A DNA stretch of 64,000 nt from Sphingomonas sp. (GTDB lineage Bacteria > Pseudomonadota > Alphaproteobacteria > Sphingomonadales > Sphingomonadaceae): contig DATLJH010000009.1 of NCBI GenBank assembly GCA_035538935.1, positions 18,378 to 82,377 of the forward strand. Direction: 5' to 3'. A program made the position numbers and the translations under genes. Under the pieces are notes generated by a model. The model worked only from the letters and a program-made list of their open reading frames with translations, did no database searches and had not been told where the DNA came from. Of the stretch, positions 1 to 44,190 are shown in pieces (position 1 is the first letter of the stretch; the number at the start of each line of letters is the position of its first letter).

Positions 1-522
1 GGGCAGCAGCCTGACGGCAAGCTCGCCGGCCTTGCGGCCCGCCAGCACCTCGTCCTGCGACGCCAGCGCGACGAGGCCGGGATAGACATCCTTCACGCTG
101 CGCGTGCGCGGGTCGCCGACCAGCGCCGCGACCGCCGCGACGGGCACGTCCGCCTTGTTCGCGCGGCGCACCCAGCCTTCGGCCACCACCGAATCGAGCG
201 GCATGATCGCGATGCCGTCGACATGCTGCGCGATCAGGTCGTCGATGTCGTTGGCCTGTTTCTGCACGCCGCCCTGCGCGTCGAGCACGATCGCCGCCGC
301 GCCCGCTTTGGCCGCCGCCTCGGTGAAGCCCTTGGCGATCGCCGCGGCGAAGGGATAGCTCAGGCCCACCGTCGAGAGGCCGTAGCGCCCGCCGCCGCGA
401 TCCACGGCGGCCGCGACCGTGCCGTTCGCCGCGCGCGCCGCCTGCCGCACGCCGACCAACGATGCGATCGCGACGATCGCGACCACCGCCGTCAGCAGCA
501 GGGGCAGGGGCTTCCAGCGCAT
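1..522 (-). CDS. RbsB/LacI-type sugar-binding protein, truncated by the window edge
   Basis: Not in the ORF track; translated by hand from the ATG at 522: MRWKPLPLLLTAVVAIVAIASLVGVRQ (hydrophobic leader), then SYPFAAAIAKGFTEAA...VLDAQGGVQKQANDIDDLIAQHVDGIAIMPLD, typical of type I periplasmic binding proteins. Starts 2 nt after the MaoC stop. Confidence 0.8.
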   Translation of the reverse strand, partial: MRWKPLPLLLTAVVAIVAIASLVGVRQAARAANGTVAAAVDRGGGRYGLSTVGLSYPFAAAIAKGFTEAAAKAGAAAIVLDAQGGVQKQANDIDDLIAQHVDGIAIMPLDSVVAEGWVRRANKADVPVAAVAALVGDPRTRSVKDVYPGLVALASQDEVLAGRKAGELAVRLLP

Positions 523-524
523 CG

Positions 525-977
525 TCAGGCCGCGCCCTCGCGCCGCTCGACGAGGTAGAGATGCTCGCAGGCGAGCACGGTCTCGCCGCGCTGGTTCTGG
601 ATATCGACCTTCTCGACGACGACGCCGTGCCCGGTGCGCTTGGGATGATCCCGCTTTTCCGTAATTGTGGTAACGGTGTGGATGGTATCGCCGATATGCA
701 CCGGGCGGATGAAGCGCAGCCGGTCATAGCCGTAGGACATGGCGCGCGGGTTGATCGTGGTCGCGGTCAGCCCGATGCCGACGCTGAACACCAAAGTGCC
801 GTGCGCGATGCGCTGGCCGATCTCCTGCGTCGCGCACCAGGCGGCATCGACGTGATGCGGGAAATAATCGCCGGTATGGCCGGCATGGATGACGAAATCG
901 GCCTCGGTGATCGTGCGGCCGAAGCTGCGGCGTTCCGAGCCGATCTCGATATCCTCGAAAAACTGTTCGACGATCAT
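525..977 (-). CDS. MaoC-family (hot-dog fold) dehydratase / (R)-enoyl-CoA hydratase
   Basis: [13 protein letters not shown]...RTITEADF...GDYFPHHVD...RIAHG...[17 protein letters not shown] overlap with the upstream CoA-transferase stop. Confidence 0.88.
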
Positions 978-2170
978 GATAGGTCTCCGTCGATCGCGGC
1001 GCGGTCCGCGCCCAGCCTGGGCGCGGCACGGCCGTTGGCGAGCACTTGCCCGTCGATGCGGATCGGGCAGCGGGTGAGGGTGAGCGTCGCGCCATCGGGC
1101 GCGCGGACCGCCTGCGTCGCATCGAGCGCGGCGAAGGCGGGATCGGCCCGCAATGCCGGCCAGTCGAGCACCGGCGCGGCCCAGATCCCGGCGGGTTCGA
1201 GGATGGCGAGCCAGGCGGCGGTGGTGTCCTGCGCCAGCCGGTCGCGCAGGTGGCGCTTGATCGCGTCGCGGCTGGTGAACCAGTCGTCGCGCGGGAAAGC
1301 CGCAAGCGCGGGGATGCCGAGCAATTCGCCGAGCCGATCGACCGGCGCCATCGCCAGCGCGATATATCCGTCGGCGGTCGGGTAGATGCCGTAGGGCGCG
1401 GCGAGGTAGACGTTGCCGTTGGCAATGTCGCTGCGCGGCGGCATCGCTTCGTCGCGGTTGAGATGGACCGAGAGATGCTCGAACTGGAGGTCGATCGCGG
1501 CCTCGATCAGGCTGACGTCGACGCGGCCGCCGGTGCCGGTGGTGCCGCGACGGACGAGCAACGCGAGCACGCCCTGGCAAAGCTGCGCACCCGCCATCAT
1601 GTCGGTGATCGCGAGGCCGGCGGGAACCGGCGGGCTACCCGCGTCGCCCGACAGCCAGGCGAGGCCGGATCGCGCCTGCACCAGCAGATCCTGCCCCGGC
1701 AGGTCGCGCCATGGCCCCTCCGCGCCGTAGCCGCTGACGCCTGCATAGACGAGGCGCGGGTTGAGCGCGCGCACGTCGTCCCAGCCCAGCCCCAGCCGCT
1801 CCATGATGCCGGGCCGGAAATTGTGGATCAGCACGTCGGCGCGCGCGATCAGGCGCTTGACCGCGGCGAGATCGGCCGCATCCTTGAGGTCGGCGGTGTA
1901 GCTCTGCTTGCCGCGATTGATCGCGTGGAACAGCGCGCTGTCGGAATCGAAGGCCAGATCGGCGAGGAACAGCCCCCGGCAGGCATCGCCGCCGTCGGGC
2001 CGCTCGACCTTGATGACGCGCGCGCCCAGATCGGCGAGCCGCAGCGCACAGGACGGCCCGGCGAGGAACTGGCTGAAATCGAGCACGACGAGCCCGTCGA
2101 GCGGCCGCGCGGGTGTCCCCCGATCCGCCCCCGGCGTGCTGTTCCCCGTCGCCGACAACCGCTCCTCCAA
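974..2170 (-). CDS. CaiB/BaiF class III CoA-transferase
   Basis: [57 protein letters not shown], and the catalytic Asp region [11 protein letters not shown] start. Confidence 0.92.
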
Positions 2171-2270
2171 TTAGTGATTTAATATGATGTATCTTCACAA
2201 ACGCTATGGGCGTGACTAGAGCGAGTCAACAGGTTTCGGGATAGAGCCGAAGAGGCATGAGAGGGCGACG

Positions 2271-3371
2271 ATGCGCGGGATGACGTGGGACCATGCGCGG
2301 GGATACGATCCGCTGGCCGCAGCCGCGCGGTTGTGGGCCGAGCGGACGGGCGTGTCGATCGCCTGGGATCGCCGGTCGCTCCAGGATTTCGAGAGCTATC
2401 CGGTAGAGACGCTGGCGCAAGAGTACGACCTGATCGTCATCGATCATCCGCATGTCGGCGGCGTCGCCGAAAGCGGGTGCCTGGTGCCGTTCGAGGGCGA
2501 CCTCGGCGAGATCGCCGCCGGATCGGTGGGCGGATCGTTCGAGAGCTATTGCTGGCAGGGGCGGCAATGGGCACTGCCGATCGACGCCGCCGCGCAGGTG
2601 CAGGCCTGGGTACCCGGTCGGATCGCGGCGCCGGTGACCGACTGGCGCGCGCTTGCCGCACTGGCGGCAGAGGGGCGGGTGGCGATCCCGCTGCGCGCGC
2701 CGCATTCGCTGATGAGCCTGTTCACCCTGTGCGGGCTCGAAGGTACGGGCCCCGACGTGGATGGCATCGACCTGTTTCCCGCGGGTGCGGTGCAGGCGTG
2801 CGCGCGGCTTGCCGAGCTCGCGGCGGCGGTCGATCCGGCGATGTACGACATGGACCCGATCGCGGTGCTCGAGGCGATGGCCGATCCGGCCGCACGGTTC
2901 GCGGTCGCGCCGCTGACCTACGGTTATGTGAGCTATGCCGTCGCCGGGTTCCGCCCCGTTCGGCTCGCCTTCGCGGACATCCCCGCGCTCGACGCCGGGC
3001 CGGCGGGATCGGCGCTCGGCGGCACGGGAATCGCCGTGTCGGCTTATGGCGGCGATCCCGCCGCCGCCGCCGACTTCGCGCGCTGGGTGGCGAGCGGCGC
3101 GGTGCAGCGCGACCTGTTCGCCGCCAATGGCGGGCAGCCGGCGCACGCGCTTGCCTGGGAAGCGGACGGCATCAACGCCGCGACCGGCGACTTCTATCGG
3201 GCGACACGCGACACGCTCGACCGCGCCTTCCTGCGGCCGCGCCATCATGGCTACATGGCGTATCAGGACGCCGCTTCGCATCGGCTCAACGAAGGACTGC
3301 GCGGCGGGGAAGCGCCTGCGGCGATCGTCGCGGCGCTCAACGCGCTCTATCGCGAAAGCCGCCAGCCGTGA
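2271..3371 (+). CDS. Type II solute-binding-protein-fold protein without a signal peptide
   Basis: MRGMTWDHARGYDPL...YDLIVIDHPHVG...WALPIDAAAQV. In-frame TAG at 2217 with no start codon between it and 2271. Confidence 0.75.
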   Translation: MRGMTWDHARGYDPLAAAARLWAERTGVSIAWDRRSLQDFESYPVETLAQEYDLIVIDHPHVGGVAESGCLVPFEGDLGEIAAGSVGGSFESYCWQGRQWALPIDAAAQVQAWVPGRIAAPVTDWRALAALAAEGRVAIPLRAPHSLMSLFTLCGLEGTGPDVDGIDLFPAGAVQACARLAELAAAVDPAMYDMDPIAVLEAMADPAARFAVAPLTYGYVSYAVAGFRPVRLAFADIPALDAGPAGSALGGTGIAVSAYGGDPAAAADFARWVASGAVQRDLFAANGGQPAHALAWEADGINAATGDFYRATRDTLDRAFLRPRHHGYMAYQDAASHRLNEGLRGGEAPAAIVAALNALYRESRQP

Positions 3372-4507
3372 GCGAAGCGCCGCTCGACGGCCTGCTCGTC
3401 ATCGACATGGCGCAATTCCTGTCGGGGCCGTCGGCGGCGCTGCGGCTCGCCGATCTCGGCGCGCGCGTCATCAAGATCGAGCGGCCGGGCAGCGGCGACA
3501 TCTGCCGGACGCTCTATCTGAGCGACACCGACGTCGAGGGCGATTCGACGCTGTTTCACGCGATCAACCGCAACAAGCAGAGCCTCGCCGCGGACCTGAA
3601 GGACGCGGCCGACCTCGCGCGCGTCAAGCGGCTGCTCGCGCGCGCCGATGTCGTGATCCAGAATTTCCGCCCCGGCGTCGCCGAGCGGCTGGGCCTCGGC
3701 GCCGAGGCGCTGATCGCGGCCAATCCGGGCCTGATCGTCGGCACCATCTCGGGCTATGGCGAGGACGGGCCGTGGGTCGATCTGCCGGGGCAGGATCTGC
3801 TCGCGCAGGCGCTGTCGGGGGTGATGTGGCTGGGCGGCGACGCCGGGGACGGACCGGTGCCGGTGGGGCTGTCGGTTGCCGACATGCTCGCCGGGCACAT
3901 CCTGACCGAAGGCGTGCTCGCCGCGCTCGTCCGGCGCGGGCGGACGGGGAAGGGCGGGCTGGTGCAGACGAGCCTGCTCGAGGCGATCGTCGATTTCCAG
4001 TTCGAGGTGCTGACGACGCACCTCAACGACGGCGGCCGGTTGCCCGCGCGCGCCGCGCGGCGCAACGCCCATGCCTATCTCGGTGCGCCCTACGGCGTCT
4101 ATCGCACGAGCGACGGTTGGTTGGCGCTGGCGATGATGCCGCTGGAAAAGCTGGCGCCGCTGCTCGACCTCGATTTCGGCGCGGCGGAAGCGTTCGCCGA
4201 CCGGGATCGTGTGAAGGCGATGATCGCCGATCGGCTCGCCACGCAACCGACCGACGCGTGGCTCGAGCTGCTGCGCGCGCACGACATCTGGTGCGCGCCG
4301 GTGCTCGACTGGCCGCACTTGCTGGCCTCGGAGGCGTTCCGCCGGCTCGACCTGCTGCAACGCGTGGCGCGCGCCGATGCCGCGATCGCGACGACGCGCG
4401 CGCCGTGGCGGCTCGACGGCGCGCGCCCAGAGAGCGGCACTGGCGCGCCACGCGTGGGCGAGCATAGCGCGCAGATCCGCCGAGAATTCGGATTGGATGA
4501 GGAGTAG
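3368..4507 (+). CDS. CaiB/BaiF class III CoA-transferase (second paralog)
   Basis: GTG at 3368 overlaps the previous stop (GTGA). [65 protein letters not shown]. Confidence 0.92.
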   Translation: MSEAPLDGLLVIDMAQFLSGPSAALRLADLGARVIKIERPGSGDICRTLYLSDTDVEGDSTLFHAINRNKQSLAADLKDAADLARVKRLLARADVVIQNFRPGVAERLGLGAEALIAANPGLIVGTISGYGEDGPWVDLPGQDLLAQALSGVMWLGGDAGDGPVPVGLSVADMLAGHILTEGVLAALVRRGRTGKGGLVQTSLLEAIVDFQFEVLTTHLNDGGRLPARAARRNAHAYLGAPYGVYRTSDGWLALAMMPLEKLAPLLDLDFGAAEAFADRDRVKAMIADRLATQPTDAWLELLRAHDIWCAPVLDWPHLLASEAFRRLDLLQRVARADAAIATTRAPWRLDGARPESGTGAPRVGEHSAQIRREFGLDEE

Positions 4508-4510
4508 GAC

Positions 4511-7500
4511 ATGACGGGTGGGATGAAGCGGCGGTTGGTCGGGGTGGCGCTGGGGGCGCTGGCGCTGGGCGGCGCGGGGGCGGTCGCGCAGGATCGGCCC
4601 GCGATGCCCGATGCCGAGACCTTCCGCACGCCGCCCGCCGAGACGCGGCCCGACACGCTCTATTTCTGGATGAACGGCAACGTCACGCGCGAGGGGCTCG
4701 ACGCCGATCTTGAGGCGATCCGCGACGTCGGGCTGGATGGCGTGATGGTGTTCGACGGCAGCAACGACATCCCCAAGGGGCCGGTCGATTATCTGAGTCC
4801 ACAATGGCTCGATCTGATGACGCACATGATCGGCAAGGCCGACACGCTGGGGCTCAAGGTCGGGATGCACAACGCGCCGGGCTGGTCGTCGAGCGGCGGC
4901 CCGTGGATCACGCCCGCCTTGTCGATGCAGCAGATCGTGTGGACCGAAACCACCGTGGACGGCGGCCGCACGGTGACGCAGACGCTGCCGCGCCCCTATG
5001 CCAAGCACGATTTCTACCGCGATGCCGCGGTGATCGCCTTCCCGGCATCGGCGGGGGACGAGAGCGTCTATCGCGATGCGATCGCGGGGATGACGCTGGG
5101 CGACGCCGAGACGCCGGCCGCCCAATTGACCGACCGCGATCTACATTCGAGCGCCGCGGCGGGGCCGGACGCGCCGCTGGTGATCCGGATGAAGGCGCCC
5201 TTCGCCGCGCAGGCGGTGACGCTTTACGGCGAGAAGGAAACGCCCGCGTTCAACGCGACGATCGAGGCGTCCGACGACGGCCAGCGCTGGCGCCCGGTGA
5301 CCAAGGTCAGCGTGGGGGCGGAGCGCGGCATCGAAAGCCCCGGCACCGCCAATTTCGATGAAACCACCGCGCGTTACTTCCGCGTGACGCCGAACCGCGA
5401 GGTCAAGCTGGCCGAGGCGTTGCTCTATGCCACGCCGCGCATTCCCGACTGGGACGTCAAGGCCGAGCACGATTTCGCGATGGAGGACGTGCCCGAGCAG
5501 GCGCCCGCCGACAAGCTCGCGCGCTACGCGATCGATCCGGCACGCGTGATCGACGTCACCGACAAGGTGGATGCGGCGGGCGTGCTGCGCTGGAAAGCGC
5601 CCGCGGGCCGCTGGACGATCCTGCGCCTGGGCCACACCACGACCGGCAAGGTCAACGTCTCGGCGTCGGAATCGGGGACGGGGCTGGAAGTCGACAAGCT
5701 CGACCGGGATGCGGTCGATTTCCAGTTCGACCACACCGTCGGGCGCGTCGCCAAAGCTGCCGGGGCGCTGACGGGCAAGACCTTCGACAAGATCGAGATC
5801 GACAGTTTCGAGGCGGGTCTCCAGAACTGGACCGTCAAGCTCCCCGCCGATTTCCAGCGGCTGAACAACTATGCGATCACGCCGTGGCTGCCCGCGCTGA
5901 CGGGGCGGATCGTCGGCGATGTCGAGCAATCGAACCGATTCCTGTTCGATTTCCGCCGCACGCTCGCCGAGCTGATGGTCGACAATTATTACGGCCGGAT
6001 GGAGCAGCGCGCCAACGCGGCGGGGCTCGATTTCTACACCGAGGGCTACGGCCCCGGCCCGTTCGACGAGCTCCAGGTGTCGGGCCGCGCCCAGGTGCCG
6101 ATGACCGAATTCTGGACGCGCACGCCCTGGACCGACAACCGCACGGTCAAGATGGTCGCCTCCGCCGCGCACGTCTACGGCAAGCCGGTGGTCGCCGCCG
6201 AGGCCTTTACCGGCGAGGCGGAGACGAGCCGCTGGTCCGATTATCCCTATGCGCTGAAAGCACTCGGCGATCAGATGTTCGCGCAGGGCTTCAACCAGAT
6301 CTTCTTCCACCGCTACGCGCACCAGCCGAACGTCAATCCCGTGCCGGGCATGACGATGGGGCCGTGGGGCATGAACATGGACCGGACCAACACCTGGTTC
6401 GGCGAGGCCAGGCCCTGGCTCGATACGCTGGCGCGCAGCCAATATATGCTGCGGCAGGGCCATTATGTCGCCGACGTGCTCTATTTCGTCGGCGAGAACA
6501 GCCCGAACCAGGCCGAATATGTCCGCCCCGACGTGTCGCCGGACACCAACCCGCTGATCGGGCGGCATTTCGATCCCAGGATGCCGCCTGGCTACAATTA
6601 CGATCTCGTCAACGCCGAGGTGCTGCTGAAGCGCGCGCGGATCGAGGACGGGCGGATCGTACTACCTAACGGCGCCTCGTACCGGATGCTGGCGCTGCCC
6701 TCCGACATTCGTGCGATGACGCCCGAGCTGGCGCACCGGCTGCGCGAGATGGTCGAGCAAGGCATGGTGCTGCTGGGCCCGAAGCCGACCTATTCGTTGA
6801 CGCTGCACGACGACGCGACGTTCGACGCCGATACCGCCGCTTTGTGGGGATCGGGCGAGGCGGCCGGGCCGCGCGCCGTCGGTAAGGGCCGCGTCTATGC
6901 CGATGGCGAGATCGGCGGCGTGCTCGGCGATCTCGGCGTCGGGCCGGACGCGATCTGCCGAACCGCTTCACCCGACGGGCAGGTGGTGTGGCTGCACCGC
7001 GCGCTGACGGGCGGGGATTCCTATTTCGTCGCCAACCGGCAGCGCCGCTACGAAACCGTCACCTGCGACTTCCGCGTCGCGGGCAAGGCGCCCGAATTGT
7101 GGAATCCCGAAACCGGCGGCGTCACCGCGCCCGCGGTCTATGACGTGACGGGCGGGCGCACGCGGGTGTCGTTCACGCTGTCGCCGGTCGGATCGACCTT
7201 CGTGATGTTCGAGCATCCGGCGAGCGATGCCGCGATCAAGTGGGTCGCGCGCGACGGCAAGCGCTTCGTCGATGCCGATGCGGCGGCGCCGGCGAAGGTC
7301 GCGGCGCCCGCGGACAGCTTCACGCTGTCGATCTGGGCCAAGCCCGACATCGACCTGCGCCTGATGCCCGACGAGGGCACGACCGGGCGCATCAACGAGA
7401 CGGGGAAGAACTATCTCGTTCCCGCGCGCTCGGGCCGCGATATGCACGGGGAGGGGACGGCCGTTGCGGGCCTCGCGGTCGGGCGCAACGGCGCGTTCGT

Positions 7501-8554
7501 GATCGAGCGCGCCTCGCCCGACACGGTGCCCGCCGTGCTGGTGAGCCATCGGCCGATCGCGGGCTGGACGCATTTCGCCTTGGTCTACGATCGCGGTACG
7601 CCGACGCTCTATATCGCCGGCAAGAAGGCGAAGACCGGCCTCAAGAGCGGGCGCACCGTCTATGCGGGTGGCAGCGATGCGCCCTCGCCGACGGGGGTCA
7701 CCTATTTCTTCGAAGGCAACAACACGCCGCTTCAGACCTACGGTCGCGTGCTGTCTGCGGCGGAGATCGCCGCGATCGCCGCCAAGGGCCCGCCCGCGCC
7801 GCCGATCAGCGCCGCGCCGGCGCGCGTCACGCTCGGCGAGGGCGGGGCGCTCGACATGCTGGCGTGGCAATCGGGGCGCTACAGCCTCAGCAACGGCAAG
7901 ACGTTCGAGGTGAAGGTGCCCGATCCAATCACCGTGGAGGGGGCGTGGCAGGTCGTCTTCGAGAAGGACCGCGGCGCGCCTGAGGCGATCACGCTGCCGA
8001 AGCTCGAATCGCTCAGCGACAATGATGATCGGCGCGTGAAATATTTCAGCGGCACCGCGACCTACAGCCGCTCGATCGAGGTGTCGGCCCCGGCGTTGCG
8101 TGAGGGGCGGCGCGTCTATCTCGACCTCGGCCGCGTCGAGGTGCTCGCGCGCGTCACCGTCAACGGCAAGGATCTGGGGACGGTATGGAAGGCGCCCTAT
8201 CGCGTCGACGTCACCGATGTTCTCCACGCCGGCGCCAATCAGGTCTCGGTCGCGGTAACCAGCCTGTGGCCCAACCGCCTGATCGGCGACGCGCAACTTC
8301 CCGATCCGGACAGTTATGTCGATGCCGAATGGCCGGTCGGCGAGCGCTTCGCCGCCGACGGCAGCAAGACCGTGCTGATGGCGCAGAAGATGCCCGAGCT
8401 GCCGGCCTGGTATCGCGAAGGCAAGCCCAAGCCCGACGATGGCCGCGTCACCTTCGCGCCGTGGAAATTCTTCCCCGCCGACGAGCCGCTGCTCGATTCG
8501 GGGCTGCTCGGCCCGGTGCGGATCGTCTTCGCCGAGGAGAAGACGCTGCGGTGA
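4511..8554 (+). CDS. GH106-family alpha-L-rhamnosidase-like glycosidase with a discoidin-like region and an inserted LamG-like domain
   Basis: Signal peptide; [61 protein letters not shown]; C-terminal GH2-like sugar-binding domain ([31 protein letters not shown]). Confidence 0.85.
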
Positions 8555-8564
8555 TTGCTGGCGT

Positions 8565-8707
8565 TTAGAGCAACGTGCGTTTAATCTGACCCAACGCCGT
8601 TCGCCCTGAGCTTGTCGAAGGGCCGTTCTTCTTTTCCACGACGAGAAAAGGACGGTGCTTCGACAAGCTCAGCACGAACGATTCTGATTTAAGGCACGTT
8701 GTTTTAA
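8565..8707. repeat. About 143 bp nested palindromic MITE/REP-like element
   Basis: Outer arms TTAGAGCAACGTGC / GCACGTTGTTTTAA enclose the inner hairpin CGTTCGCCCTGAGCTTGTCGAAG / CTTCGACAAGCTCAGCACGAACG. Confidence 0.75.
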
Positions 8708-8714
8708 TTATCTT

Positions 8715-8744
8715 CGTCACCCCGGCCTTCGAGCCGGGGTGACG
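8715..8744. terminator. GC-rich hairpin between convergent genes (bidirectional terminator or REP half)
   Basis: CGTCACCCCGGC-cttcga-GCCGGGGTGACG, a perfect 12 bp stem. Confidence 0.6.
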
Positions 8745-8763
8745 GGATATTGGATGTGCCGGC

Positions 8764-10980
8764 TTATCGATACACCCGGATGAGATAGGTCGTCGTGGCC
8801 GGATTGCCGATCGGCAGTTCCCAGCCGTTTTCCAGCAACCGCCCGTCGATCGTCGGCAGCGGCTTCGCGGCGCCGTCGAGCGGGGTCGCGGTGAGGCCGA
8901 CCACGCCGACCAGATCGTGGAACTGGAGCCAGCCGGTGACGGGCTCGATCAGGCTCGGCGCGGTGCCCCAGTTGCTCGTCACGCTGCGCCGCGCGTTCCA
9001 CGTCATGCCGGTGTTCTGCGCACGGGCGGTGGTGGTCAGCAGCATTTCATTCGAGTGATCGATGGGCTTGCCGTCGAGCGACGACAGCGTGATCACCGCG
9101 AACGGCGTCGAGATGTCGGCGGTGAGGTTCGTGGTGCGCGCACCGGTCTGGCGGACGAAGCCGACCAGCGCCTGGGTGCGCTCGGTATCGATCGTCACCA
9201 CGCCGTTGCTGCCGTCCTCGACCGACCATTCGAGCTCGCCGGTGTCCGACGCGATCGGCATCGTCTCCGCGGGCGCCTCGGCGGCCGTGGGCTTGCAGTC
9301 GAGGCACGCGATCCGCGTTTCGTGAACGAGCGGCAGGCGCTTGGGATAGCCCGGCGTGAAGGCGGGCATTTCCGACATCGGCATCCGCGCCATCTCGGCC
9401 ACCTGGTCGCGCGAATAGCTGCGCGTGATCGTCTCGCGCGCTTTGGCGACGTCGCCACGCAGGAAGATCATCGCGCCGACCGGCAGCTGCGCGATCTTGG
9501 TGGGATGCTGGGTCATGTCAAAATGGTCGCCGATCATGCCCTTCCACTCGCCCTCGAGCTTGGTCTCGAAGGTGTAGAAGAACACGCCGTCCCAATCCTG
9601 CAACGCGGCATAGGCGGCGAGGATCGGAATCTGCTCGGCGTCATATTCGTGCGGGAAGGGCTCGTTGACCTCGCTCACGACGAAGGGCTTGCCGGCCATC
9701 GCGGTGCGCGACAGGCGTTGCAGGATCGATCCCTCGGGGTCGTTGACCATCGGCGTGTTGCGCTTGCCGAAGATCGCCGGGTGCTGCCAGTAGACGTGCG
9801 CATCGACGATGTCGAAATGCTGCGTCGTCTCCAGCAGCGGCTGGCCGGGGATGAAATAGCTGTGATCGGCGGTCGCGACGATCGGCGCCTTCACGCCCAG
9901 CTCGTCGCGCAGGAAAGTGCGCATGTCTTCGAAGAAGGTGCGTTCGGCGTCGACCAGGAAATTGGCCTCGCTGTGGAAGCGCAGTTTGGACGCTGCCTCG
10001 AATTGCTGGCGGCGCATCAGCGGCACCGGCGCGCCGTCCGCCACGCCGGCCTCACGCCGGATATCCGCGATTTCTTTGGCGGAATGGTGTTTCGCGAGCC
10101 ACTCATTGTAGAGGCCGGTGAGGATCGACAGGTAATGCGGGGTGAAGTCGAGCTGGTGGCGCGGGCCGTTCTCGGTCAGCTCGCCGCGGAACCAGTTGCG
10201 CATCCAGAATTCGAGCAGCGAGTTTTCGTTGACGATCTCGACCGTCGAGACCGCGGGATCGTCGGCGTAGCGCAGCCCGGTATAGGGATTGCGATGCCCG
10301 AGCAGCATCCGCGCATAATCCTTCTGCCGCTCGATCAGTTCGGGGCCGATATAGGTCACCGCCTTGGCGACGCCGATCAGCTTGGCGTCGGGAACGCCGT
10401 CACCGGGCTTCCAGGTGTGGCCGACATTGAGATTGAAGTTGGCGTAGATGCCGTTCTTCTTGAGCTGCGCGAAGAAGTAGTCGAGATGGTCGAGCTGGGT
10501 CGGGTTGAAATGGCCCGTATCGTCGCGGCTGCTGTCGATCAGGCCAACGGGGGTGTGGGTCGCGGGCTCGGGATCCCCGGTCGGCCCGCTGCCGCTGCGC
10601 ACGCGCGTCGCATCGGGCATGTCGAGGAAATGCAGGCGGACGCAATTGACGCCGAGGCGCGCCAGCTCGGCGGCGAAGACCTCTGCCTCGTGGTGCGGCG
10701 GGATTTCGGCTGAGCCCGGGGTCCAACCGGTCAGGTTGACGCCCCAGCAGCGCAGACGGGTGCCGTCCTCGAAAGTGAGATGACCGTCGCGCGCCTGGAC
10801 GAAACCGTGCTTGCCCGCGGGCCCGTCGAGCAGGAAGCGCATGTCGGCGCGCGAATCCTGCCGCGCGAAATGATCGATGACGAAAGGAGCCCAGTCGGGT
10901 TGGGTGGGAACCTCCTGCGCCGACAGCGACGTCCCCACAAGCAACGCCGCGCCAATGGCCGATCCGAACGCTTTGCGCAT
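8764..10980 (-). CDS. Secreted clan GH-A (GH5-like) glycoside hydrolase of unknown specificity
   Basis: Signal peptide; RCWGVNL, LARLGVNCVRLHFLD, NPYTGLRYADDPAVSTVEIVNENS (acid/base-type NE), KPFVVSEVNEPFP (nucleophile-type SE). Confidence 0.7.
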   Translation of the reverse strand: MRKAFGSAIGAALLVGTSLSAQEVPTQPDWAPFVIDHFARQDSRADMRFLLDGPAGKHGFVQARDGHLTFEDGTRLRCWGVNLTGWTPGSAEIPPHHEAEVFAAELARLGVNCVRLHFLDMPDATRVRSGSGPTGDPEPATHTPVGLIDSSRDDTGHFNPTQLDHLDYFFAQLKKNGIYANFNLNVGHTWKPGDGVPDAKLIGVAKAVTYIGPELIERQKDYARMLLGHRNPYTGLRYADDPAVSTVEIVNENSLLEFWMRNWFRGELTENGPRHQLDFTPHYLSILTGLYNEWLAKHHSAKEIADIRREAGVADGAPVPLMRRQQFEAASKLRFHSEANFLVDAERTFFEDMRTFLRDELGVKAPIVATADHSYFIPGQPLLETTQHFDIVDAHVYWQHPAIFGKRNTPMVNDPEGSILQRLSRTAMAGKPFVVSEVNEPFPHEYDAEQIPILAAYAALQDWDGVFFYTFETKLEGEWKGMIGDHFDMTQHPTKIAQLPVGAMIFLRGDVAKARETITRSYSRDQVAEMARMPMSEMPAFTPGYPKRLPLVHETRIACLDCKPTAAEAPAETMPIASDTGELEWSVEDGSNGVVTIDTERTQALVGFVRQTGARTTNLTADISTPFAVITLSSLDGKPIDHSNEMLLTTTARAQNTGMTWNARRSVTSNWGTAPSLIEPVTGWLQFHDLVGVVGLTATPLDGAAKPLPTIDGRLLENGWELPIGNPATTTYLIRVYR

Positions 10981-22699: not shown

Positions 22700-23811
22700 G
22701 GGCCGCGCTCCGCCGGCTGCACGTCGCGCTCGTCCCGGCCGCGCTGCTGCTCGGCGCGGCGGGGCCCGTCGCGGCGGACCCGTCGCCGGTCGTCGCGCGC
22801 GAGTTCATATACGAGTCCGCGCCCTATCCGCAGGCGCACGCCTCGACGATCGTCGAGACCAGCGCGGGCACGCTCGCCGCGGCATGGTTCGGCGGTACGC
22901 GTGAGAGCAACCCCGATGTCAGCATCTATGTCGCGCGGCATGAGAAGGGCGCGTGGCAACGGCCGGTGAAGGTCGCCGACGGGGTGCAGGGGGACGGCAC
23001 GCGCTATCCCACGTGGAACCCGGTGCTGTTCCAGGCGCCGGACGGGCCGCTGTTGCTCTTCTACAAGGTGGGGCCGAGCCCGACCAAATGGTGGGGCATG
23101 GTGACGCGCTCCACCGACGACGGCCGCTCGTGGAGCACGCCGCAGCGGCTACCCGACGGCATCCTGGGGCCGATCAAGAACAAGCCGGTCGTTCTTGCCG
23201 ATGGGTCATGGCTGGCGCCGTCGAGCGTCGAGACCGAAGACGGGCGCTGGACGCTCCATTTCGAGCGGAGCACCGATCGCGGCAAGAGTTGGATCGCATC
23301 GCCTGCGGTCGCCTCACCCGAGCATATCGACGCGATCCAGCCGAGCATCCTCTTCCACGAGGACGGATCGCTCGAGGCGATCGCGCGCACGCGGCAGGGC
23401 GCGCTCGCGATGACCTGGTCGAAGGACGGCGGCAAGAGCTGGTCGCCGCTCGCCGCGATCGATTTGCCCAACCCCAATTCGGGCACCGATGCGGTGACGC
23501 TCGCGGACGGGCGCCAGCTTCTCGTCTACAATCACAGCGCGCACAGCCCGGACAGGCCCGGCAAGGGGCCGCGCTATCCGCTCAACGTCGCGCTGTCGGA
23601 CGACGGCATCCGCTGGCGCCCGGTGCTGACTCTGGAATGCAAACCGCTGCCCGCCGGTTATGCCTATCCCGCCGTCATCCAGACGCGCGACGGGCTTGTC
23701 CACATCACCTACACCTATGATCGCCGCCGTATCGGGCACATCGTGCTCGAACCGGAACGGCTCGGCGGAATAGTCGATCCTAGCCGATGCGGTACAGACG
23801 CGCCGCATTAG
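22696..23811 (+). CDS. BNR-repeat sialidase-like (GH33-like) secreted protein
   Basis: Signal peptide; HASTIVET...AAWFGG, Asp-boxes STDDGRSW, STDRGKSW, SKDGGKSW, SDDGIRW, and YAYPAVIQ. ATGA-coupled to the upstream gene. Confidence 0.82.
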   Translation: MRAALRRLHVALVPAALLLGAAGPVAADPSPVVAREFIYESAPYPQAHASTIVETSAGTLAAAWFGGTRESNPDVSIYVARHEKGAWQRPVKVADGVQGDGTRYPTWNPVLFQAPDGPLLLFYKVGPSPTKWWGMVTRSTDDGRSWSTPQRLPDGILGPIKNKPVVLADGSWLAPSSVETEDGRWTLHFERSTDRGKSWIASPAVASPEHIDAIQPSILFHEDGSLEAIARTRQGALAMTWSKDGGKSWSPLAAIDLPNPNSGTDAVTLADGRQLLVYNHSAHSPDRPGKGPRYPLNVALSDDGIRWRPVLTLECKPLPAGYAYPAVIQTRDGLVHITYTYDRRRIGHIVLEPERLGGIVDPSRCGTDAPH

Positions 23812-24676
23812 CGGCGAACAGCGCGTCGCGTTCGCCGGCGCTGAAATCGGCGGTGATGTCCGAATAAGCCTGGAGGTGTCGATCGAACGGGCCGAACAAT
23901 TTGTCGGTGGGAAAATCGCTCGCGACCATGCAACGATCGGTGCCGAATTGGTCGATGGCGTGGAGGATCAGCGGGCGGATGCGCTCGACGGTCCAGCCGT
24001 GATCGACGATGCCGAAGCCTGATAGTTTAATGGCTACATGAGGCAACGCGGCGAGTGCGGCGAGCCCGTCGCGCCATTCGGCCTCGCCGCCGTCATCGAC
24101 GAGCATGCCGGTATGGTTGATCATCACCGGCACGTCGGGGTGCTGCGCCGCGAGCGCGGCCGCCGCCTTCATCTGCCCCGGATAGAGCTGGAGATCGAAG
24201 CTCAGCCCGTATTTGCCGAGCAGCGCATAGCCCGCGTGCCATTGCGGGTCGTCTAGCAGGTTGGCGGGGGTGTAGGTCTTGCCCGGATCGGGGTGCCAAT
24301 TGGCGATGTGGCGGATGCCGCGGACGTTGGGAAAGCTCGCCTGCGCTTCGAGAATCGCCTCGACCTTGGGATCGTCGAGCGGCGCGAAGCCGACGATCGC
24401 GTTGGGCATTCCCCGCGTATCGGCCATCGCCTGGAGCCAGCGCGTCTCGTCGAGCGCGGCGGCGGGATCGGCGCCGGCATCGATATGGACGATCCCCGTG
24501 ACGTTCCATCCCGCCGCATCGGCGAGATAATCGTCGAGCAGATAGGTCTTCGCGATCGGCTCGACGCTGCCCATCACGCCGTCGTCGGAAAAAGGCGGCG
24601 TCAGCCACGAATAGGCGATGTGCGACAGATCCCACAGATGGACGTGCGCGTCGACGAAGCGGGCCGGGCGCGTCAT
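23780..24676 (-). CDS. Amidohydrolase-family lactonase (probable L-rhamnono-1,4-lactonase, LRA2)
   Basis: VDAHVHLWD, VRGIRH, MINHTG, IKLSG, FGTDRCMVASDFP; last gene of the rhamnose oxidation operon. Confidence 0.8.
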   Translation of the reverse strand: MTRPARFVDAHVHLWDLSHIAYSWLTPPFSDDGVMGSVEPIAKTYLLDDYLADAAGWNVTGIVHIDAGADPAAALDETRWLQAMADTRGMPNAIVGFAPLDDPKVEAILEAQASFPNVRGIRHIANWHPDPGKTYTPANLLDDPQWHAGYALLGKYGLSFDLQLYPGQMKAAAALAAQHPDVPVMINHTGMLVDDGGEAEWRDGLAALAALPHVAIKLSGFGIVDHGWTVERIRPLILHAIDQFGTDRCMVASDFPTDKLFGPFDRHLQAYSDITADFSAGERDALFAANAARLYRIG

Positions 24677-25425
24677 CAGAAGGTCGTTCTGCCGCCCGAC
24701 GTGTCGAAGGTGGACGCGGTGGTGAACGAGCATTCCTCGCTCGCCATGAAGCACACCATCGCGGCGGATTCGGCAACCTCGCCGAGACGGCCCATCGGGA
24801 TCTTGGAGCGCATGTAATCGACCTGGCTCTGGGGAAGCTGGGCGAGGATCGGGCTCTCGAAGGTGGCGGGGGTGAGCGCGTTGACGATCACGCCTCTGGT
24901 CGCGAGCTCCTTGCCCATCGACTTGGTGAGCCCGATCACGCCCGCCTTGGAGGCGGAATAGGCCGAGGCGTTGGGATTGCCTTCCTTGCCCGCAACCGAG
25001 GCGACGTTGACGATGCGGCCGTAGCCACGCTCGGCCATGTGTGCGCCGACCGCACGGCAGCAATAGAACAGGCCATTGAGGTTGATCGCCATCACCTGAA
25101 GCCAGCTGTCGATCGGGTAATCGGTGACGGGCGCGGTCGCGCCGGTGATCCCGGCGGCGTTGACGAGGATGTCGACATGGCCGAGCGCGGCGATCGTCTC
25201 GCGCGCGGCGACCTCGACCGCCGCATTGTCCGACACGTCGAGCGCGGCCGTGTGCGCCACCCCGTCCTCTGCCGAAAGCGCGGCGAGGCTGTCACGATTG
25301 ACGTCCCACAAGGCGACCCGGCCGCCCTCGGCGACGATGCGCCGGGCGGCGGCGAGCGCGAGCCCCGAGGCGCCGCCGGTGAGGATCGCGGTGCGGCCTT
25401 CGAAGCGTCCCTGATAGACGCTCAT
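24676..25425 (-). CDS. SDR oxidoreductase (probable 2-keto-3-deoxy-L-rhamnonate 4-dehydrogenase, LRA5-like)
   Basis: TGGASGLALA, VNAAGI, NVASVAGKEGNPNASAYSASKAG (YxxxK), SGGR. Confidence 0.78.
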   Translation of the reverse strand: MSVYQGRFEGRTAILTGGASGLALAAARRIVAEGGRVALWDVNRDSLAALSAEDGVAHTAALDVSDNAAVEVAARETIAALGHVDILVNAAGITGATAPVTDYPIDSWLQVMAINLNGLFYCCRAVGAHMAERGYGRIVNVASVAGKEGNPNASAYSASKAGVIGLTKSMGKELATRGVIVNALTPATFESPILAQLPQSQVDYMRSKIPMGRLGEVAESAAMVCFMASEECSFTTASTFDTSGGRTTF

Positions 25426-26279
25426 GCGCGGGCTTCCCAGGCGACGAACGTCTGGCGCTGGGTGCCGAGCTTCTCGATACCCAATTCCACCACGTCGCCC
25501 GCCTTGAGATACCAGGGTTCGGGCTTCTGGCCGAGGCCGACGCCCGGCGGGGTGCCGGTGGTGATGATGTCGCCAGGCTCGAGCACCATGAATTGCGAGC
25601 AATAGGCGACGATCTCGGCGACGGTGAAGATCATGGTCGCGGACGAGCCGTCCTGCATGCGCTTGCCGTTGACGTCGAGCCACATCGAAAGGTTCTGCGG
25701 ATCGCCCACCTCGTCGGCGGTGACCAGCCAGGGGCCGACCGGGCCGAAGGTCGGGAAGCCCTTGCCCTTGTCCCAGGTGGGGCCGCGCTCGACCTGCCAG
25801 TGGCGCTCCGAGACGTCGTTGACCACGCAATAGCCCGCGACATGCGCGAGCGCGTCTTCCTTGGAGACGTAGTTCGCCCGCGTGCCGATGACGACGCCCA
25901 GTTCGACTTCCCAGTCGGTCTTGGCCGAATCGCGCGGGATGACGACATCGTCGTTCGGCCCCTGGAGGCAGTTCACCCATTTGTTGAACACGACCGGCTC
26001 TTCGGGGATCGGCAGGTTCGATTCGGCGGCATGATCGGCATAGTTGAGGCCGATCGCGATGAACTTGCCCGTGCCCGCTACCGGCACGCCGTAGCGCGGA
26101 TCGCCCTCGACCAGCGGCAGCGACGCGGGATCGATCGCGGCAAGCTCGGCCAGCGTCGCGGGCGCGAGCGCGTCGCTCGACAGATCGGCGACGACGCCCG
26201 AAAGGTCGCGGATGCGGCCCTCGGCATCGATCAGGCCGGGCTTCTCGGCGCCGACGGCACCAAAACGGCAAAGTTTCAT
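25422..26279 (-). CDS. Fumarylacetoacetate hydrolase-family protein (probable 2,4-diketo-3-deoxy-L-rhamnonate hydrolase, LRA6-like)
   Basis: IGLNYADHAAE, DWEVELGVVIG, NDVSER, WDKGKGFPTFGPVGP, GDIITTGTPPGVG. Confidence 0.82.
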   Translation of the reverse strand: MKLCRFGAVGAEKPGLIDAEGRIRDLSGVVADLSSDALAPATLAELAAIDPASLPLVEGDPRYGVPVAGTGKFIAIGLNYADHAAESNLPIPEEPVVFNKWVNCLQGPNDDVVIPRDSAKTDWEVELGVVIGTRANYVSKEDALAHVAGYCVVNDVSERHWQVERGPTWDKGKGFPTFGPVGPWLVTADEVGDPQNLSMWLDVNGKRMQDGSSATMIFTVAEIVAYCSQFMVLEPGDIITTGTPPGVGLGQKPEPWYLKAGDVVELGIEKLGTQRQTFVAWEARA

Positions 26280-26291
26280 GGGGCAGAGTCC

Positions 26292-27479
26292 TCAGTGCGT
26301 ATAGGGGCGGTGGAGCGGGATATCGCGATTCAGCTCCACGCCGAAACCCGGCTTGTCGAGCTTCGAGACGTGGATGCGCCCGTTCTCGGGCACCGGCTCG
26401 CCGATCAGCTGCGGCGCGAACATCGGCACCACTTCGTCCGCCTTGGGCGCCATCATCAGGAACTCCGAGAACGGGCTGTTATGGCGGGTGATCACGAAGT
26501 GATAGCTGTAGACGCTCGATCCGTGCGGCACGACGAGCTTGCCTCGGGAATCCGCGAGCGTCGCGATTTTGACCAGCTCGGTCAGCCCGCCACACCAGCC
26601 GACGTCGGGCTGGAGAATGTCGCAGCATTCCATTTCGAGCAGCATGCGGAAGCCCCAGCGCGTCGCCTCATGCTCGCCGGTGGTGACCAGCATGCCGCGG
26701 GGCACGTTGCGCCGGAGATCGGCATAGCCCCAATAATCGTCGGGGCTGAGCGCTTCCTCGATCCATTTGAGCCCCGACTCGTTCCACGCGCGCGTCGCGA
26801 ACCGGGTGGCGTAATCGAGATCGAGCGACATCCAGCAATCGACCATCAGCCAGAAATCGTCGCCGACGCGGCTGCGCATTTCGGCGAGTTCGGCGAGGTT
26901 GCGCGCGAGCCCCTCGTCGCCCTCGGCCGGGCCGTGATGGAGCGGCAGCTTGCCGCCGACGAACCCCATCTGCCTGGCGAGGTCCGGCCGCGCGCCGGTG
27001 GCGTAGAAGCTGATTTCGTCGCGCACCGCGCCGCCGAGCAGGCGATAGACCGGCTCGCCGCGCAACTTGCCGAGCAGATCCCACAGCGCCAGATCGACGC
27101 CCGAGATCGCGTTCACCACCAGCCCCTTGCGCCCGTAATATTGGGTCGCGAAGTACATCTGATCCCAGATCGTCTCGATATCGGCCGGATCACGCCCCTC
27201 GAGGAAACGCGCGAGATGCTTCTCGACGATGTAGGCCGCGGGCTCGCCGCCGGTCGTCACCGCGAAGCCGATCGTGCCGTCCGCCGCCTCGATCTCCACC
27301 ACCAGCGTGCCGAGCACGTTGATCCCGAAGCTGCGCCGGCTCTCCCGATATTCGGGATAGCGCGCCATCGGGGTCGCGATGTGATCGTCGATCCAGTGCC
27401 CGTCGCCCTGATCGTGGTAATCCGCGCCGCCGCCGCGCACCACGGATGCTCGGACCGCTCGTATCTTCGGTAGGCTCAC
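26292..27479 (-). CDS. rhmD: L-rhamnonate dehydratase (enolase superfamily)
   Basis: [85 protein letters not shown]. Confidence 0.92.
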
Positions 27480-27617
27480 GCTCGATCTAACTCCCTTTTT
27501 AAAAGTATTATATGACGATTGAGCTTGCGGTCAACGACATTTGGCGGATCGGCGGGTCGATTCGCGCGCGCTCGGACGCCGCCCGGGCTCGTGTCGTCGG
27601 GCCCGGGCGGCGCCATG

Positions 27618-28382
27618 CTATTGCAGGTTCACGAACATGCCGCCGTCGACCAGCAGCGAAGCGCCCGTGACGTAGCGTGCGAGATCGGAGGCGAGGAACA
27701 CCGTCGGCCCCACGAGATCATCGGGATCGCCCAGCCGCCCCAGCGGGATGCGCTTTTCCATGTACGTCCGCTTTTCGGTATCGGCGAGATCGTCCTTGTT
27801 GATGTCGGTCAGGATGGTGCCGGGGAGCAGTGCGTTGCAGCGGATGCCGTGCTTGCCGAGCGCGATCGCGCACGATTGCATCAGCGAGAGCACGCCCGCC
27901 TTGGTGGGCGTATAGTGCGTCTGATATTCGCCGCCGACCAGCGCCGAGATCGACGACATGGCGATGATCGACCCGCCGTCGCCCTGCTTCACCATCTGGT
28001 TCGCGGCGGCCTGCACCATGAAATAGGCGCCGTGCATGTTGACCCGCATCGTCCGCTCGAACGTCTCGACGGGCATGTCGAGAAAGGCGTGGAAGGGGCA
28101 GATGCCGGCATTGTTGACGAACACGTCGACCCGGCCCAGCGCCGCTACCGCGCCCTCGACGAAGCGGGTCGCGCTTTCGGGCTCGGCGACGTCGCCCTGA
28201 ATCGCGACGGCCTTGCGCCCCAGCGCCTCGATCGCCGCGACCGCGCCTTCGGCGCCGGCGGAATCGCGGCCGAAATTGAGCGCGACGTCTGCGCCGTGCC
28301 GGGCGCAGCCGATCGCCACCGCGCGGCCGATGCCCGCCGACGCGCCGGTGACGAGGACGGTTTTTCCTTCGAGCAGCATCAT
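27618..28382 (-). CDS. SDR L-rhamnose 1-dehydrogenase (LRA1-like)
   Basis: TGASAGIG, NNAGICPFH, SSISALVGGEYQTHYTPTKAG, LLVDGGMFVNLQ. Confidence 0.85.
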   Translation of the reverse strand: MMLLEGKTVLVTGASAGIGRAVAIGCARHGADVALNFGRDSAGAEGAVAAIEALGRKAVAIQGDVAEPESATRFVEGAVAALGRVDVFVNNAGICPFHAFLDMPVETFERTMRVNMHGAYFMVQAAANQMVKQGDGGSIIAMSSISALVGGEYQTHYTPTKAGVLSLMQSCAIALGKHGIRCNALLPGTILTDINKDDLADTEKRTYMEKRIPLGRLGDPDDLVGPTVFLASDLARYVTGASLLVDGGMFVNLQ

Positions 28383-43977: not shown

Positions 43978-44049
43978 CGGCACCAGCCAGCATCGGGTGA
44001 ACGGTGTCCCACACCGTTCAGGCCGTGCCGGGGGCACGGCCGACCTGAT

Positions 44050-44104: not shown

Positions 44105-44190
44105 GGGCCGGTGCCGATCCGGCGAAGCTGAAAACAGTCGCGCTTGCGACGGCGCCGGTCGGATGGCTCCGCCCGACGCCGCGCCCCCCT

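Follow-up and report, generated by a model that had tools for sequence, protein, structure and literature searches.

In the logic of class III coenzyme A (CoA)-transferases, the transferase makes a thioester, a hydratase then performs an α-deprotonation/β-elimination, that is, a step that the free acid would not undergo, and the CoA is passed on; CaiB/CaiD (carnitine) and FldA/FldBC (phenyllactate) are examples. Here we describe a gene cassette at positions 1-4507 of a 64,000-nucleotide (nt) stretch of Sphingomonas sp. DNA (contig DATLJH010000009.1; "the window", that is, the whole stretch that was analyzed) in which two transferases of this class (CoAT1 and CoAT2) and a MaoC-type hydratase are encoded together with a leaderless protein of the maltose-binding-protein (MBP) fold (SBP8_A) and the secreted binding protein of a sugar transporter. 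The cassette is real, coherent, and widely conserved; its two divergent operons form one catabolic cassette, which probably processes a sugar acid as the CoA thioester.

The cassette resembles CaiB/CaiD of Escherichia coli in that a family III CoA-transferase is paired with a hydratase/dehydratase for a 3-hydroxy acid and, as we propose here, in that CoA is recycled between product and substrate, with no thiolase or lyase needed; also, distant members of the cassette family carry a crotonase like CaiD. However, the scores against the CaiB equivalog model are 64-84 bits (cut-off 413), the hydratase is a MaoC hot-dog protein and not a crotonase, the context is that of sugar uptake and oxidation and not of betaines, and the cassette has two leaderless partners with the fold of solute-binding proteins (SBPs) as well as two transferase paralogues. 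The itaconate (Ict/Ich (RipB)/Ccl) and mesaconate/citramalate pathways likewise pair a CoA-transferase with a MaoC-type hydratase and supply the nearest curated hidden Markov models; however, the cassette is embedded among sugar transport and oxidation genes, its transferases score 172-188 bits against the mesaconate transferase model (cut-off 700), and its MaoC scores 56 bits against RipB/Ich (cut-off 340) and is therefore no equivalog of that enzyme. No citramalyl-CoA lyase (HpcH/HpaI or HMGL-like) was found among the scanned window genes or the annotated conserved neighbor clusters. In the deoxyribonate catabolism of Klebsiella michiganensis a sugar acid is metabolized as its CoA thioester, with a lactonase and a CoA-transferase in the cluster and with a CoA synthetase, a 3-hydroxyacyl-CoA dehydrogenase, and a thiolase acting on the 2-deoxy acid (PMC6365646); the present cassette differs in having a dehydratase and its own, unique SBP-fold proteins and in having neither synthetase nor thiolase. 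Finally, the non-phosphorylative L-fucose and L-rhamnose pathways resemble the cassette and its surroundings in the mutarotase, C1 dehydrogenase, and lactonase upstream and in the short-chain dehydrogenase (SDR) and FAH-family hydrolase downstream, and in rhizobia the cassette is merged with such a cluster; these pathways use no CoA, whereas several cassette variants replace or supplement the metal-dependent dehydratase by a CoA-transferase and a hydratase.

The genes and the control region at this end of the window are the following:

1-522, minus strand: RbsB-like periplasmic sugar-binding protein of the carbohydrate uptake transporter 2 (CUT2) type, N-terminal 174 amino acids (aa); Pfam Peripla_BP_4, E 7e-18
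525-977, minus strand: MaoC-type single hot-dog (R)-specific enoyl-CoA hydratase/dehydratase, 150 aa; Pfam MaoC_dehydratas, E 2e-20
974-2158, minus strand: class III (CaiB/BaiF) CoA-transferase 1 (CoAT1), 394 aa; Pfam CoA_transf_3, E 2e-99
2159-2270, no strand: putative control region between the divergent units, carrying a motif that is conserved in Sphingomonadaceae
2271-3371, plus strand: SBP8_A, leaderless (cytoplasmic) MBP-fold protein, 366 aa; Pfam SBP_bac_8, E 2e-11
3368-4507, plus strand: class III CoA-transferase 2 (CoAT2), 379 aa; Pfam CoA_transf_3, E 8e-96
4511-8554, plus strand: secreted GH106 α-L-rhamnosidase, 1347 aa; Pfam Glyco_hydro_106, E 3e-212, with a signal peptide

The genes at positions 1-4507 form two divergent units, each with translational coupling. 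On the minus strand, an ATGA overlap at 974-977 joins the CoAT1 stop to the MaoC start, and a 2-nt gap leads from MaoC to the RbsB-like gene; on the plus strand, a GTGA overlap at 3368-3371 joins SBP8_A and CoAT2, and a 3-nt gap leads from CoAT2 to GH106. The G+C content of the window is ~68%, and real genes stand out by their third-position G+C. Judged by its ribosome-binding context (GGAGGAG 5-6 nt upstream), TTG 2158 is the more likely start of CoAT1 (394 aa) than the alternative TTG 2170 (398 aa); CoAT1 is also called as 394 aa on L001, a contig that carries identical genes and shows the operon past the window edge. The RbsB-like gene, which the edge cuts, encodes 335 aa at full length on L001 and is the first gene of an ATP-binding cassette (ABC) transporter that runs beyond the window; its product has a predicted signal peptide (MRWKPLPLLLTAVVAIVAIASLVG, from sequence reading), has RbsB, XylF, and YtfQ as its best NCBIfam models (all far under cut-off), and is nearest in the Protein Data Bank (PDB) to ribose- and allose-binding proteins (E 1e-26). 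Behind it the minus-strand operon on L001 continues with a double-domain ABC ATPase and a BPD_transp_2 permease and then with SBP8_B (396 aa), a Gfo/Idh/MocA oxidoreductase (GFO), GH42, and GH29, the stop and start codons overlapping or abutting throughout this extension; GH42 and GH29 carry signal peptides and SBP8_B does not. The sole transporter in the operon is of the CUT2 type, with its own secreted Peripla_BP_4 protein. Pfam and sequence reading agree with the preliminary description of this DNA, made from the letters alone, in which a CoA-transferase/MaoC/RbsB-like unit diverges from an SBP/CoA-transferase/GH106 unit with overlapping codons; its extent was right for the genes in the window, but the minus-strand operon runs further, through GH29.

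The two units probably share an operator/promoter, as judged from a motif in the intergenic region that consists of AATTAGTnnnnTTATATGAT (2169-2188), GCTATG (2203-2208), and GAGTCAAC (2223-2230); in an alignment of 13 sphingomonad loci, GTCAA is invariant and the TTATAT core nearly so. A simple sigma-70 consensus scan of 2100-2350 found neither promoter nor terminator, and an Rfam scan of 1-9000 gave 0 matches. The cassette of this organism has no internal regulator gene; elsewhere IclR or GntR genes accompany it.

Both transferases are full-length (positions 1-365/366 of the CoA_transf_3 profile in CoAT1 and 1-366/366 in CoAT2), and they share 57% identity. The best NCBIfam model is succinate-glutarate CoA-transferase for CoAT1 (204 bits vs a cut-off of 750) and succinyl-CoA:mesaconate CoA-transferase for CoAT2 (188 bits vs 700); the transferases also resemble SUGCT-like enzymes, with scores that are 3- to 4-fold under the equivalog cut-offs. 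The top PDB matches of CoAT2 are formyl-CoA transferase, YfdE, and a Brucella CaiB/BaiF protein (E 1e-53 to 1e-47), and a conserved Asp, D172 of CoAT2 (VADMLAG), corresponds to that in ITDMMAG of CoAT1; it lies near residue 170, a correspondence to D169 of Frc by position and not by residue alignment. In MaoC the catalytic Asp/His dyad is kept (TGDYFPHH, compared with SGDRNPVH in the (R)-hydratase 5cpg and SGDHFYAH in PaaZ); the PaaZ hydratase domain is matched with 79 bits, and the closest PDB relative is 4ffu, a structural-genomics 'oxidase' (E 1e-59). GFO is distant kin of DgpA and 1,5-anhydrofructose reductase in the PDB sequence search, in which the cassette proteins found just structural-genomics entries (4ffu, 4ed9) and generic relatives. 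No cassette protein reaches an NCBIfam equivalog cut-off and SBP8_A has no solved relative, as expected if, as first proposed, this is an uncharacterized CoA-dependent unit within sugar catabolism. The logic of branched-acid pathways that had been ascribed to it holds in that the nearest curated families are the mesaconate and succinate-glutarate CoA-transferases and RipB/Ich; however, the scores are far under the cut-offs.

Family III includes racemases, so one of the two paralogues might be an acyl-CoA epimerase/racemase of the MCR/AMACR branch that inverts a stereocenter of a sugar-acid thioester for a standard pathway. AMACR/MCR structures match CoAT2 with E 1e-29, and most lineages have both paralogues, with the rhizobia using one and a second MaoC; however, both paralogues are much nearer to true transferases (E 1e-53) than to racemases, and an epimerase leaves MaoC unexplained, so we regard this as very unlikely indeed.

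The most distinctive gene of the cassette is that for SBP8_A. The protein begins at its first β-strand; neither it nor SBP8_B has a signal peptide or a lipobox, and upstream extension of the reading frames is blocked by the neighbor gene or by stop codons. Its matches to solved structures are limited to MalE/LpqY at E>=0.003, and a search of NCBIfam gave no match. A structure predicted with AlphaFold2 from a 120-sequence alignment (pLDDT 94; a model from 13 sequences with pLDDT 62 was discarded) places it among MalE-like folds, with Foldseek TM scores of 0.75-0.80 at 15-17% identity; Foldseek returned MalE-like binding proteins only and no enzyme. A profile search of 1.8 billion representatives (E<=1e-30) gave 692 clusters at 50% identity, nearly all of ~365-400 aa; the thousands of relatives go under the names 'extracellular solute-binding protein' or 'sugar transport system substrate-binding protein'. 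Nearly all of the clusters, and the top 150 representatives throughout, align from residue 1-10, so the family as a whole is leaderless; no fusion of SBP8_A to a CoA-transferase was found among these 150. About 67 positions are invariant in 120 sequences from different classes of Proteobacteria, including DHPH, YGYxxY, LGGTG, QPxH, and RPR, and these positions are rich in His, Arg, Tyr, and Trp.

SBP8_B belongs to Pfam SBP_bac_8/1 and matches a trehalose/maltose-binding protein with E 1e-27. SBP8_A-CoAT2 and SBP8_B-GFO are two conserved, translationally coupled pairs; the coupling of SBP8_B to GFO, which mirrors that of SBP8_A to CoAT2, is seen on L001 (11763-14023) and at a distant locus, L091 (6576-8875). 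In the rhizobial clusters the place of SBP8_B is taken by a RhaM-like mutarotase. SBP8_A has in common with the MalE-like solute-binding proteins of CUT1 transporters its fold, and both SBP8_A and SBP8_B have Pfam SBP_bac_8; however, the two differ from these proteins in having no export signal and no cognate CUT1 permease pair or ATPase and in being coupled, each of them, to a cytoplasmic enzyme (CoAT2 or GFO). Because SBP8_A is leaderless and coupled to a CoA-transferase, its annotation as a solute-binding protein is almost certainly wrong; our conjecture is that SBP8_A and SBP8_B are partner or specificity subunits. SBP folds have been recruited as enzymes, e.g., in cyclohexadienyl dehydratase; we know of no SBP-fold enzyme that works with a CoA-transferase.

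Using SBP8_A as the probe because it is so distinctive, we scanned one genome per species and found at least 583 loci across the Alpha- and Betaproteobacteria; the neighborhood counts that follow are for the best 80 of these, to which the proteins of the window and L001 were mapped by tblastn. The 80 loci belong to Sphingomonadales, Comamonadaceae, Burkholderiaceae, Hyphomicrobiales, Acetobacteraceae, and Azospirillaceae. A CoAT2 orthologue adjoins SBP8_A in 75 of the 80, MaoC orthologues with at least 60% identity are present in 56, and MaoC, CoAT1, GFO, and SBP8_B co-occur in taxon-specific patterns; because the gene set recurs, as taxon-specific subsets, in 80/80 loci from other genomes, the arrangement goes far beyond what chance would give. 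The full set (CoAT1, MaoC, CUT2 ABC transporter, SBP8_B, GFO, and usually an SDR) is found in sphingomonads (24 loci) and Burkholderiaceae (6). In Comamonadaceae (7) and Skermanella, IclR, MaoC, and CoAT1 are divergent from a tripartite ATP-independent periplasmic (TRAP) transporter, SBP8_A, CoAT2, and SDR, with neither GFO nor ABC system. In Hyphomicrobiales (41), a second MaoC (40% identical) accompanies CoAT2 and SBP8_A, and these genes are adjacent to or within a few kb of another cluster that encodes an Amidohydro_2 lactonase, IclR, a CUT1 ABC transporter, a 349-aa MR_MLE protein, a RhaM-like mutarotase, GFO (~57-58% identity), MaoC (~66%; 61-71% in Mesorhizobium), and SDR. The context genes are of the sugar/sugar-acid type throughout: CUT2 or CUT1 ABC or TRAP transporters, Amidohydro_2, SGL, or 7-bladed lactonases, a RhaM-like mutarotase, DUF4432, and LacI/IclR/GntR regulators. 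In Paraburkholderia sp. DHOC27 a gene of the phosphoenolpyruvate-mutase/isocitrate-lyase family lies directly upstream of SBP8_A (L024, 8930-9904, minus strand); because it is found in 2 loci only, we do not count it as part of the cassette.

We also examined eight distant relatives of SBP8_A (E 1e-80 to 1e-131), five of which adjoin a CoA_transf_3 gene:

L085: CUT2 ABC transporter and CoA_transf_3
L089 and L093: CoA_transf_3, SBP8_A-like, ECH (crotonase), FAH, Aldedh, and DUF4432, with a LacI or GntR regulator
L090: CUT1 sugar ABC transporter, SGL lactonase, SBP8_A-like, CoA_transf_3, ECH (crotonase), and SDR
L091: TRAP transporter, DHDPS-type aldolase, CoA-transferase, GFO, SBP, SBP8_A-like, CoA-transferase, MaoC, and IclR

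The neighbors of the other relatives are glycosidases, dehydrogenases, LacI regulators, or MR_MLE enzymes. No sugar-acid dehydratase of the MR_MLE or IlvD type is encoded in the clusters at L089, L090, and L093, where the CoA-transferase/hydratase pair stands at the position expected for a dehydratase. A Weimberg-like assignment of the distant clusters, with FAH as a XylX-like enzyme and Aldedh as an α-ketoglutarate semialdehyde dehydrogenase, received no specific support from NCBIfam and would be a weak analogy. The recurring theme is that a sugar or sugar lactone is followed by an acid, the acid by a CoA thioester, the thioester by (de)hydration, and this by SDR, FAH, or aldolase.

Our favored reading is a cycle like that of CaiB/CaiD, in which a sugar acid is first activated by a class III CoA-transferase and then loses water through the hydratase to become the 2-keto-3-deoxy acid; we advance it tentatively, as not quite an even bet. 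We infer the substrate class, the order of the steps, the cycling of CoA, and the roles of the SBP-fold proteins in the following way. The secreted GH106, GH42, and GH29 would free monosaccharides in the periplasm, the RbsB-like CUT2 ABC transporter would import one of these sugars, and GFO, coupled to the leaderless SBP8_B, would oxidize it to a lactone or sugar acid. A class III CoA-transferase (CoAT2 with SBP8_A, with CoAT1 as its paralogue) would convert the sugar acid to the CoA thioester, from which MaoC would abstract the acidified C2 proton and eliminate the hydroxyl or substituent at C3 to give a 2-keto-3-deoxy-acyl-CoA; the CoA would then be passed back to the next substrate molecule in the fashion of CaiB/CaiD. 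The 2-keto-3-deoxy acid would proceed to SDR, FAH-hydrolase, or aldolase-type enzymes; this is the substrate type of the SDR, FAH, DHDPS, and aldehyde dehydrogenase families found with the cassette. Bacteria that import the acid itself (by TRAP, in Variovorax and Skermanella) would do without the dehydrogenase.

The minimal units of Variovorax and Skermanella, which contain TRAP, CoAT1, MaoC, SBP8_A, CoAT2, SDR, and IclR only, are also what would be expected if the substrate were a non-carbohydrate acid of plants or soil (itaconate-, mesaconate-, citramalate-, or hydroxy-dicarboxylate-like) and the sugar genes were merely co-located. The best curated matches (mesaconate, glutarate, and oxalate CoA-transferases and RipB/Ich) agree with such an acid, as does the match of MaoC to β-methylmalyl-CoA dehydratase in the PDB (E 2e-13); however, the scores are 3- to 6-fold under the equivalog cut-offs, and a citramalyl-CoA or HMG-CoA-type lyase is found in no conserved position. 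In sphingomonads and Burkholderiaceae the cassette is interleaved, with overlapping codons, with the CUT2 transporter and GFO, the distant members occur with lactonases, DUF4432, LacI regulators, and sugar ABC transporters, and the modeled fold of SBP8_A is that of a sugar-binding (MalE-like) protein; on balance we consider a non-carbohydrate substrate rather unlikely.

The window itself is a locus of the rhamnogalacturonan II (RG-II)/pectin type, with GH106, GH78, the GH140 apiosidase, a BNR/GH33-like protein, GH28, and GH95, an apiose-type set (split transketolase, FGGY kinase, xylose-isomerase-like TIM-barrel protein, and DeoR regulator), a ManD-type mannonate dehydratase, an altronate/galactarate-type dehydratase, a CE15 esterase, and TonB-dependent receptors. 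This context led the preliminary description to propose aceric acid (3-C-carboxy-5-deoxy-L-xylose) of RG-II as the candidate substrate. In such a route GFO would oxidize C1 to give a branched dicarboxylate that is activated by a dicarboxylate-type CoA-transferase and dehydrated by MaoC, as in the itaconate and citramalate pathways. Several observations are consistent with this proposal, in addition to the glycosidases and apiose genes of the window. The GH106, GH42, and GH29 of the sphingomonad operon match the linkage types around aceric acid, as these are reportedly arranged in side chain B of RG-II; the nearest curated CoA-transferases and hydratases take branched or dicarboxylic C4-C6 acids; the TRAP acid transporter of Variovorax and Skermanella fits an acidic sugar; and a catabolic pathway for aceric acid is absent from the literature that we searched.

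However, the neighborhoods across genomes argue against a specific tie to RG-II. RG-II-type glycosidases are found within 10 kb of the cassette in 14 of the 80 loci, all from sphingomonads (14/24); they are absent from the other 10 sphingomonad loci and from all 56 loci of Burkholderiales, Hyphomicrobiales, and the rest, that is, homologous cassettes occur mostly away from pectin loci. GH106 itself follows the cassette in 13/24 sphingomonad loci and 0/56 others and is a lineage-specific accessory outside the conserved core. No GH127, the family said to release aceric acid, was found among the window genes scanned by Pfam, an HpcH/HMGL-type lyase is in no conserved position, and the rhizobial copies lie beside or within an L-fucose-type cluster instead of a pectin locus; also, 8-12 genes, kept as a cassette in hundreds of genomes (Brucella/Ochrobactrum among them), seem a large outlay for a sugar that occurs once per RG-II molecule. 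Because free rare sugars may be cross-fed to bacteria without the glycosidases, the absence of pectin loci weakens the proposal and does no more than that; overall, we think aceric acid an improbable substrate.

The 'fuconate route' that had been described at 23780-28382 (minus strand) is actually the L-rhamnose Lra1/Lra2/Lra3/Lra5/Lra6 route (Lra1, 458 bits vs a cut-off of 400; L-rhamnonate dehydratase, 760 vs 393; diketo-rhamnonate hydrolase, 486 vs 500). The true L-fuconate dehydratase (FucD) is at 49076-50377 (minus strand; Xanthomonas campestris FucD structures, 2hxt, E 3e-165), next to an IclR regulator; no fucose dehydrogenase, lactonase, or hydrolase was found beside it at 49076-51292. 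Elsewhere in the locus, a gene at 8764-10980 (minus strand) encodes a secreted 738-aa protein that matches nothing in Pfam or NCBIfam and, in the PDB, weakly resembles a GH5 endo-mannanase and nothing else (E 5e-4). The gene is kept next to GH106 in L002, L016, and L077, and its product is a candidate for an unclassified glycosidase of the RG-II-type locus. At 42566-48896, a gene for a CE15 glucuronoyl-esterase-like protein (42566-43840) is grouped with one for a TonB-dependent receptor (44191-47082) and, next to the latter, one for a tryptophan-halogenase-like flavoprotein (47253-48896).

In Sinorhizobium meliloti and Mesorhizobium, the L-fucose-type cluster beside the cassette comprises a fuconolactonase-like Amidohydro_2 protein, FucD, SDR, and FAH; as reconstructed by tblastn, the cluster on pSymB of S. 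meliloti 1021 continues with an FAH hydrolase (63% identical to that of the window) and a FucD orthologue (72% identical to that at 49076-50377). This FucD/fuconolactonase/SDR/FAH set is absent from the Variovorax and Burkholderiaceae loci, and in the window FucD is 45 kb away, the hydrolase set near the cassette being that of the rhamnose route. The 349-aa MR_MLE protein of the rhizobial cluster, which is encoded next to the RhaM-like mutarotase and GFO, is nearest to 3,6-anhydro-L-galactonate cycloisomerase (L034, 17452-18498; 5xd7, E 5e-73), an enzyme that acts on an L-galactonate derivative by eliminating its C3 ether; with this protein and a separate FucD, the cluster may handle two different L-galacto-type acids. 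An in-frame stop interrupts the GFO orthologue of Mesorhizobium qingshengii Jales19 (L034, 18906-19964). The CoAT2 copy of S. meliloti 1021 (L084, 3313-4224; pSymB 731312-732223) can be aligned for only 78% of its length, and ~10 kb of unrelated genes lie between this copy and the fucose-type cluster; these features suggest possible decay of the cassette in some rhizobia.

These neighborhoods raise a further explanation, that the cassette removes or bypasses an O-methyl (or other ether) group of a fucose-type sugar, e.g., the 2-O-methyl-L-fucose of RG-II, of rhizobial Nod factors, or of lipopolysaccharide. The aldonate would be activated with CoA, the elimination would be one beyond the reach of MR_MLE/IlvD dehydratases, and the product, 2-keto-3-deoxy-L-fuconate, would enter the L-fucose route. 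The cassette is beside or interleaved with L-fucose-type genes in ~40 rhizobial loci, the sphingomonad operon includes a GH29 fucosidase, and the separate FucD implies that plain L-fuconate needs no second dehydratase; the ether-eliminating relatives of the rhizobial MR_MLE protein point the same way, and 2-O-methyl-L-fucose is listed among the sugars of RG-II (bioRxiv 10.64898/2026.03.13.711244). However, the chemistry is purely inferential, no enzyme is assigned to hydrolyze the 2-methoxy-enoyl intermediate, and the TRAP-only versions imply that a free acid is the environmental substrate. We consider this explanation doubtful, at long odds.

For a CoA-dependent sugar-acid route, the substrate class that is most likely, if weakly indicated, is the acid of an L-fucose-type sugar (a 6-deoxy-L-hexose or one of L-galacto configuration), or else a derivative that is beyond ordinary dehydratases. 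An L-fucose-type sugar is suggested by the setting in rhizobia, by the GH29 gene of the operon, and by the orthology of GFO and MaoC; because the genome has its own FucD, a derivative is suggested rather than L-fucose itself. Acidic sugars, including aceric acid, stay in play because the nearest transferases are dicarboxylate-like and because of the TRAP variants.

Several points weigh against the CoA-dependent route as we have drawn it. Among curated CoA-transferases, the nearest are those for dicarboxylates (oxalate, glutarate, mesaconate), so a dicarboxylic or branched acid fits better than a simple aldonate. The genome has ordinary L-rhamnonate and L-fuconate dehydratases and the rhizobial clusters hold MR_MLE together with CoA genes, so a CoA-dependent dehydratase would be redundant unless its substrate differs. 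The 2-oxoacyl-CoA products are chemically unusual, and aldonyl-CoA intermediates are not named in the literature that we searched. Three of the eight distant SBP8_A relatives have no adjacent CoA-transferase, and the FAH and Aldedh genes of the distant clusters have no specific curated assignment in NCBIfam. The route proposed for the cassette members is drawn from sequence and genomic context, and the roles of the SBP-fold proteins are conjectural.

Literature searches for CoA-transferase with MaoC and sugar acid, for CaiB with fucose, and for S. meliloti SMb21101-21112 found nothing on the cassette; a CUT2 L-fucose transporter is noted in Herbaspirillum. In the most specific form of the proposal, which we hold to be unlikely, the cassette is an enzyme architecture not described before: the cytoplasmic, signal-less MBP-fold proteins are catalytic or specificity subunits of the CoA-transferase and of GFO and act with MaoC, in a CoA-dependent route, on sugars of plants or the rhizosphere that are out of reach of conventional dehydratases, like 2-O-methyl-L-fucose or aceric acid; if true, this would solve the catabolism of one such rare sugar. 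Because the cassette occurs in Sinorhizobium meliloti, Variovorax, and Paraburkholderia, among other hosts amenable to genetics, its substrate is directly testable, as is the fate of several rare sugars of the plant wall. If the CoA-dependent route is correct, many soil- and plant-associated Proteobacteria would run CoA thioester chemistry on sugar acids, an alternative to the enolase-superfamily and IlvD-type dehydratases that is absent from pathway databases and annotation rules.

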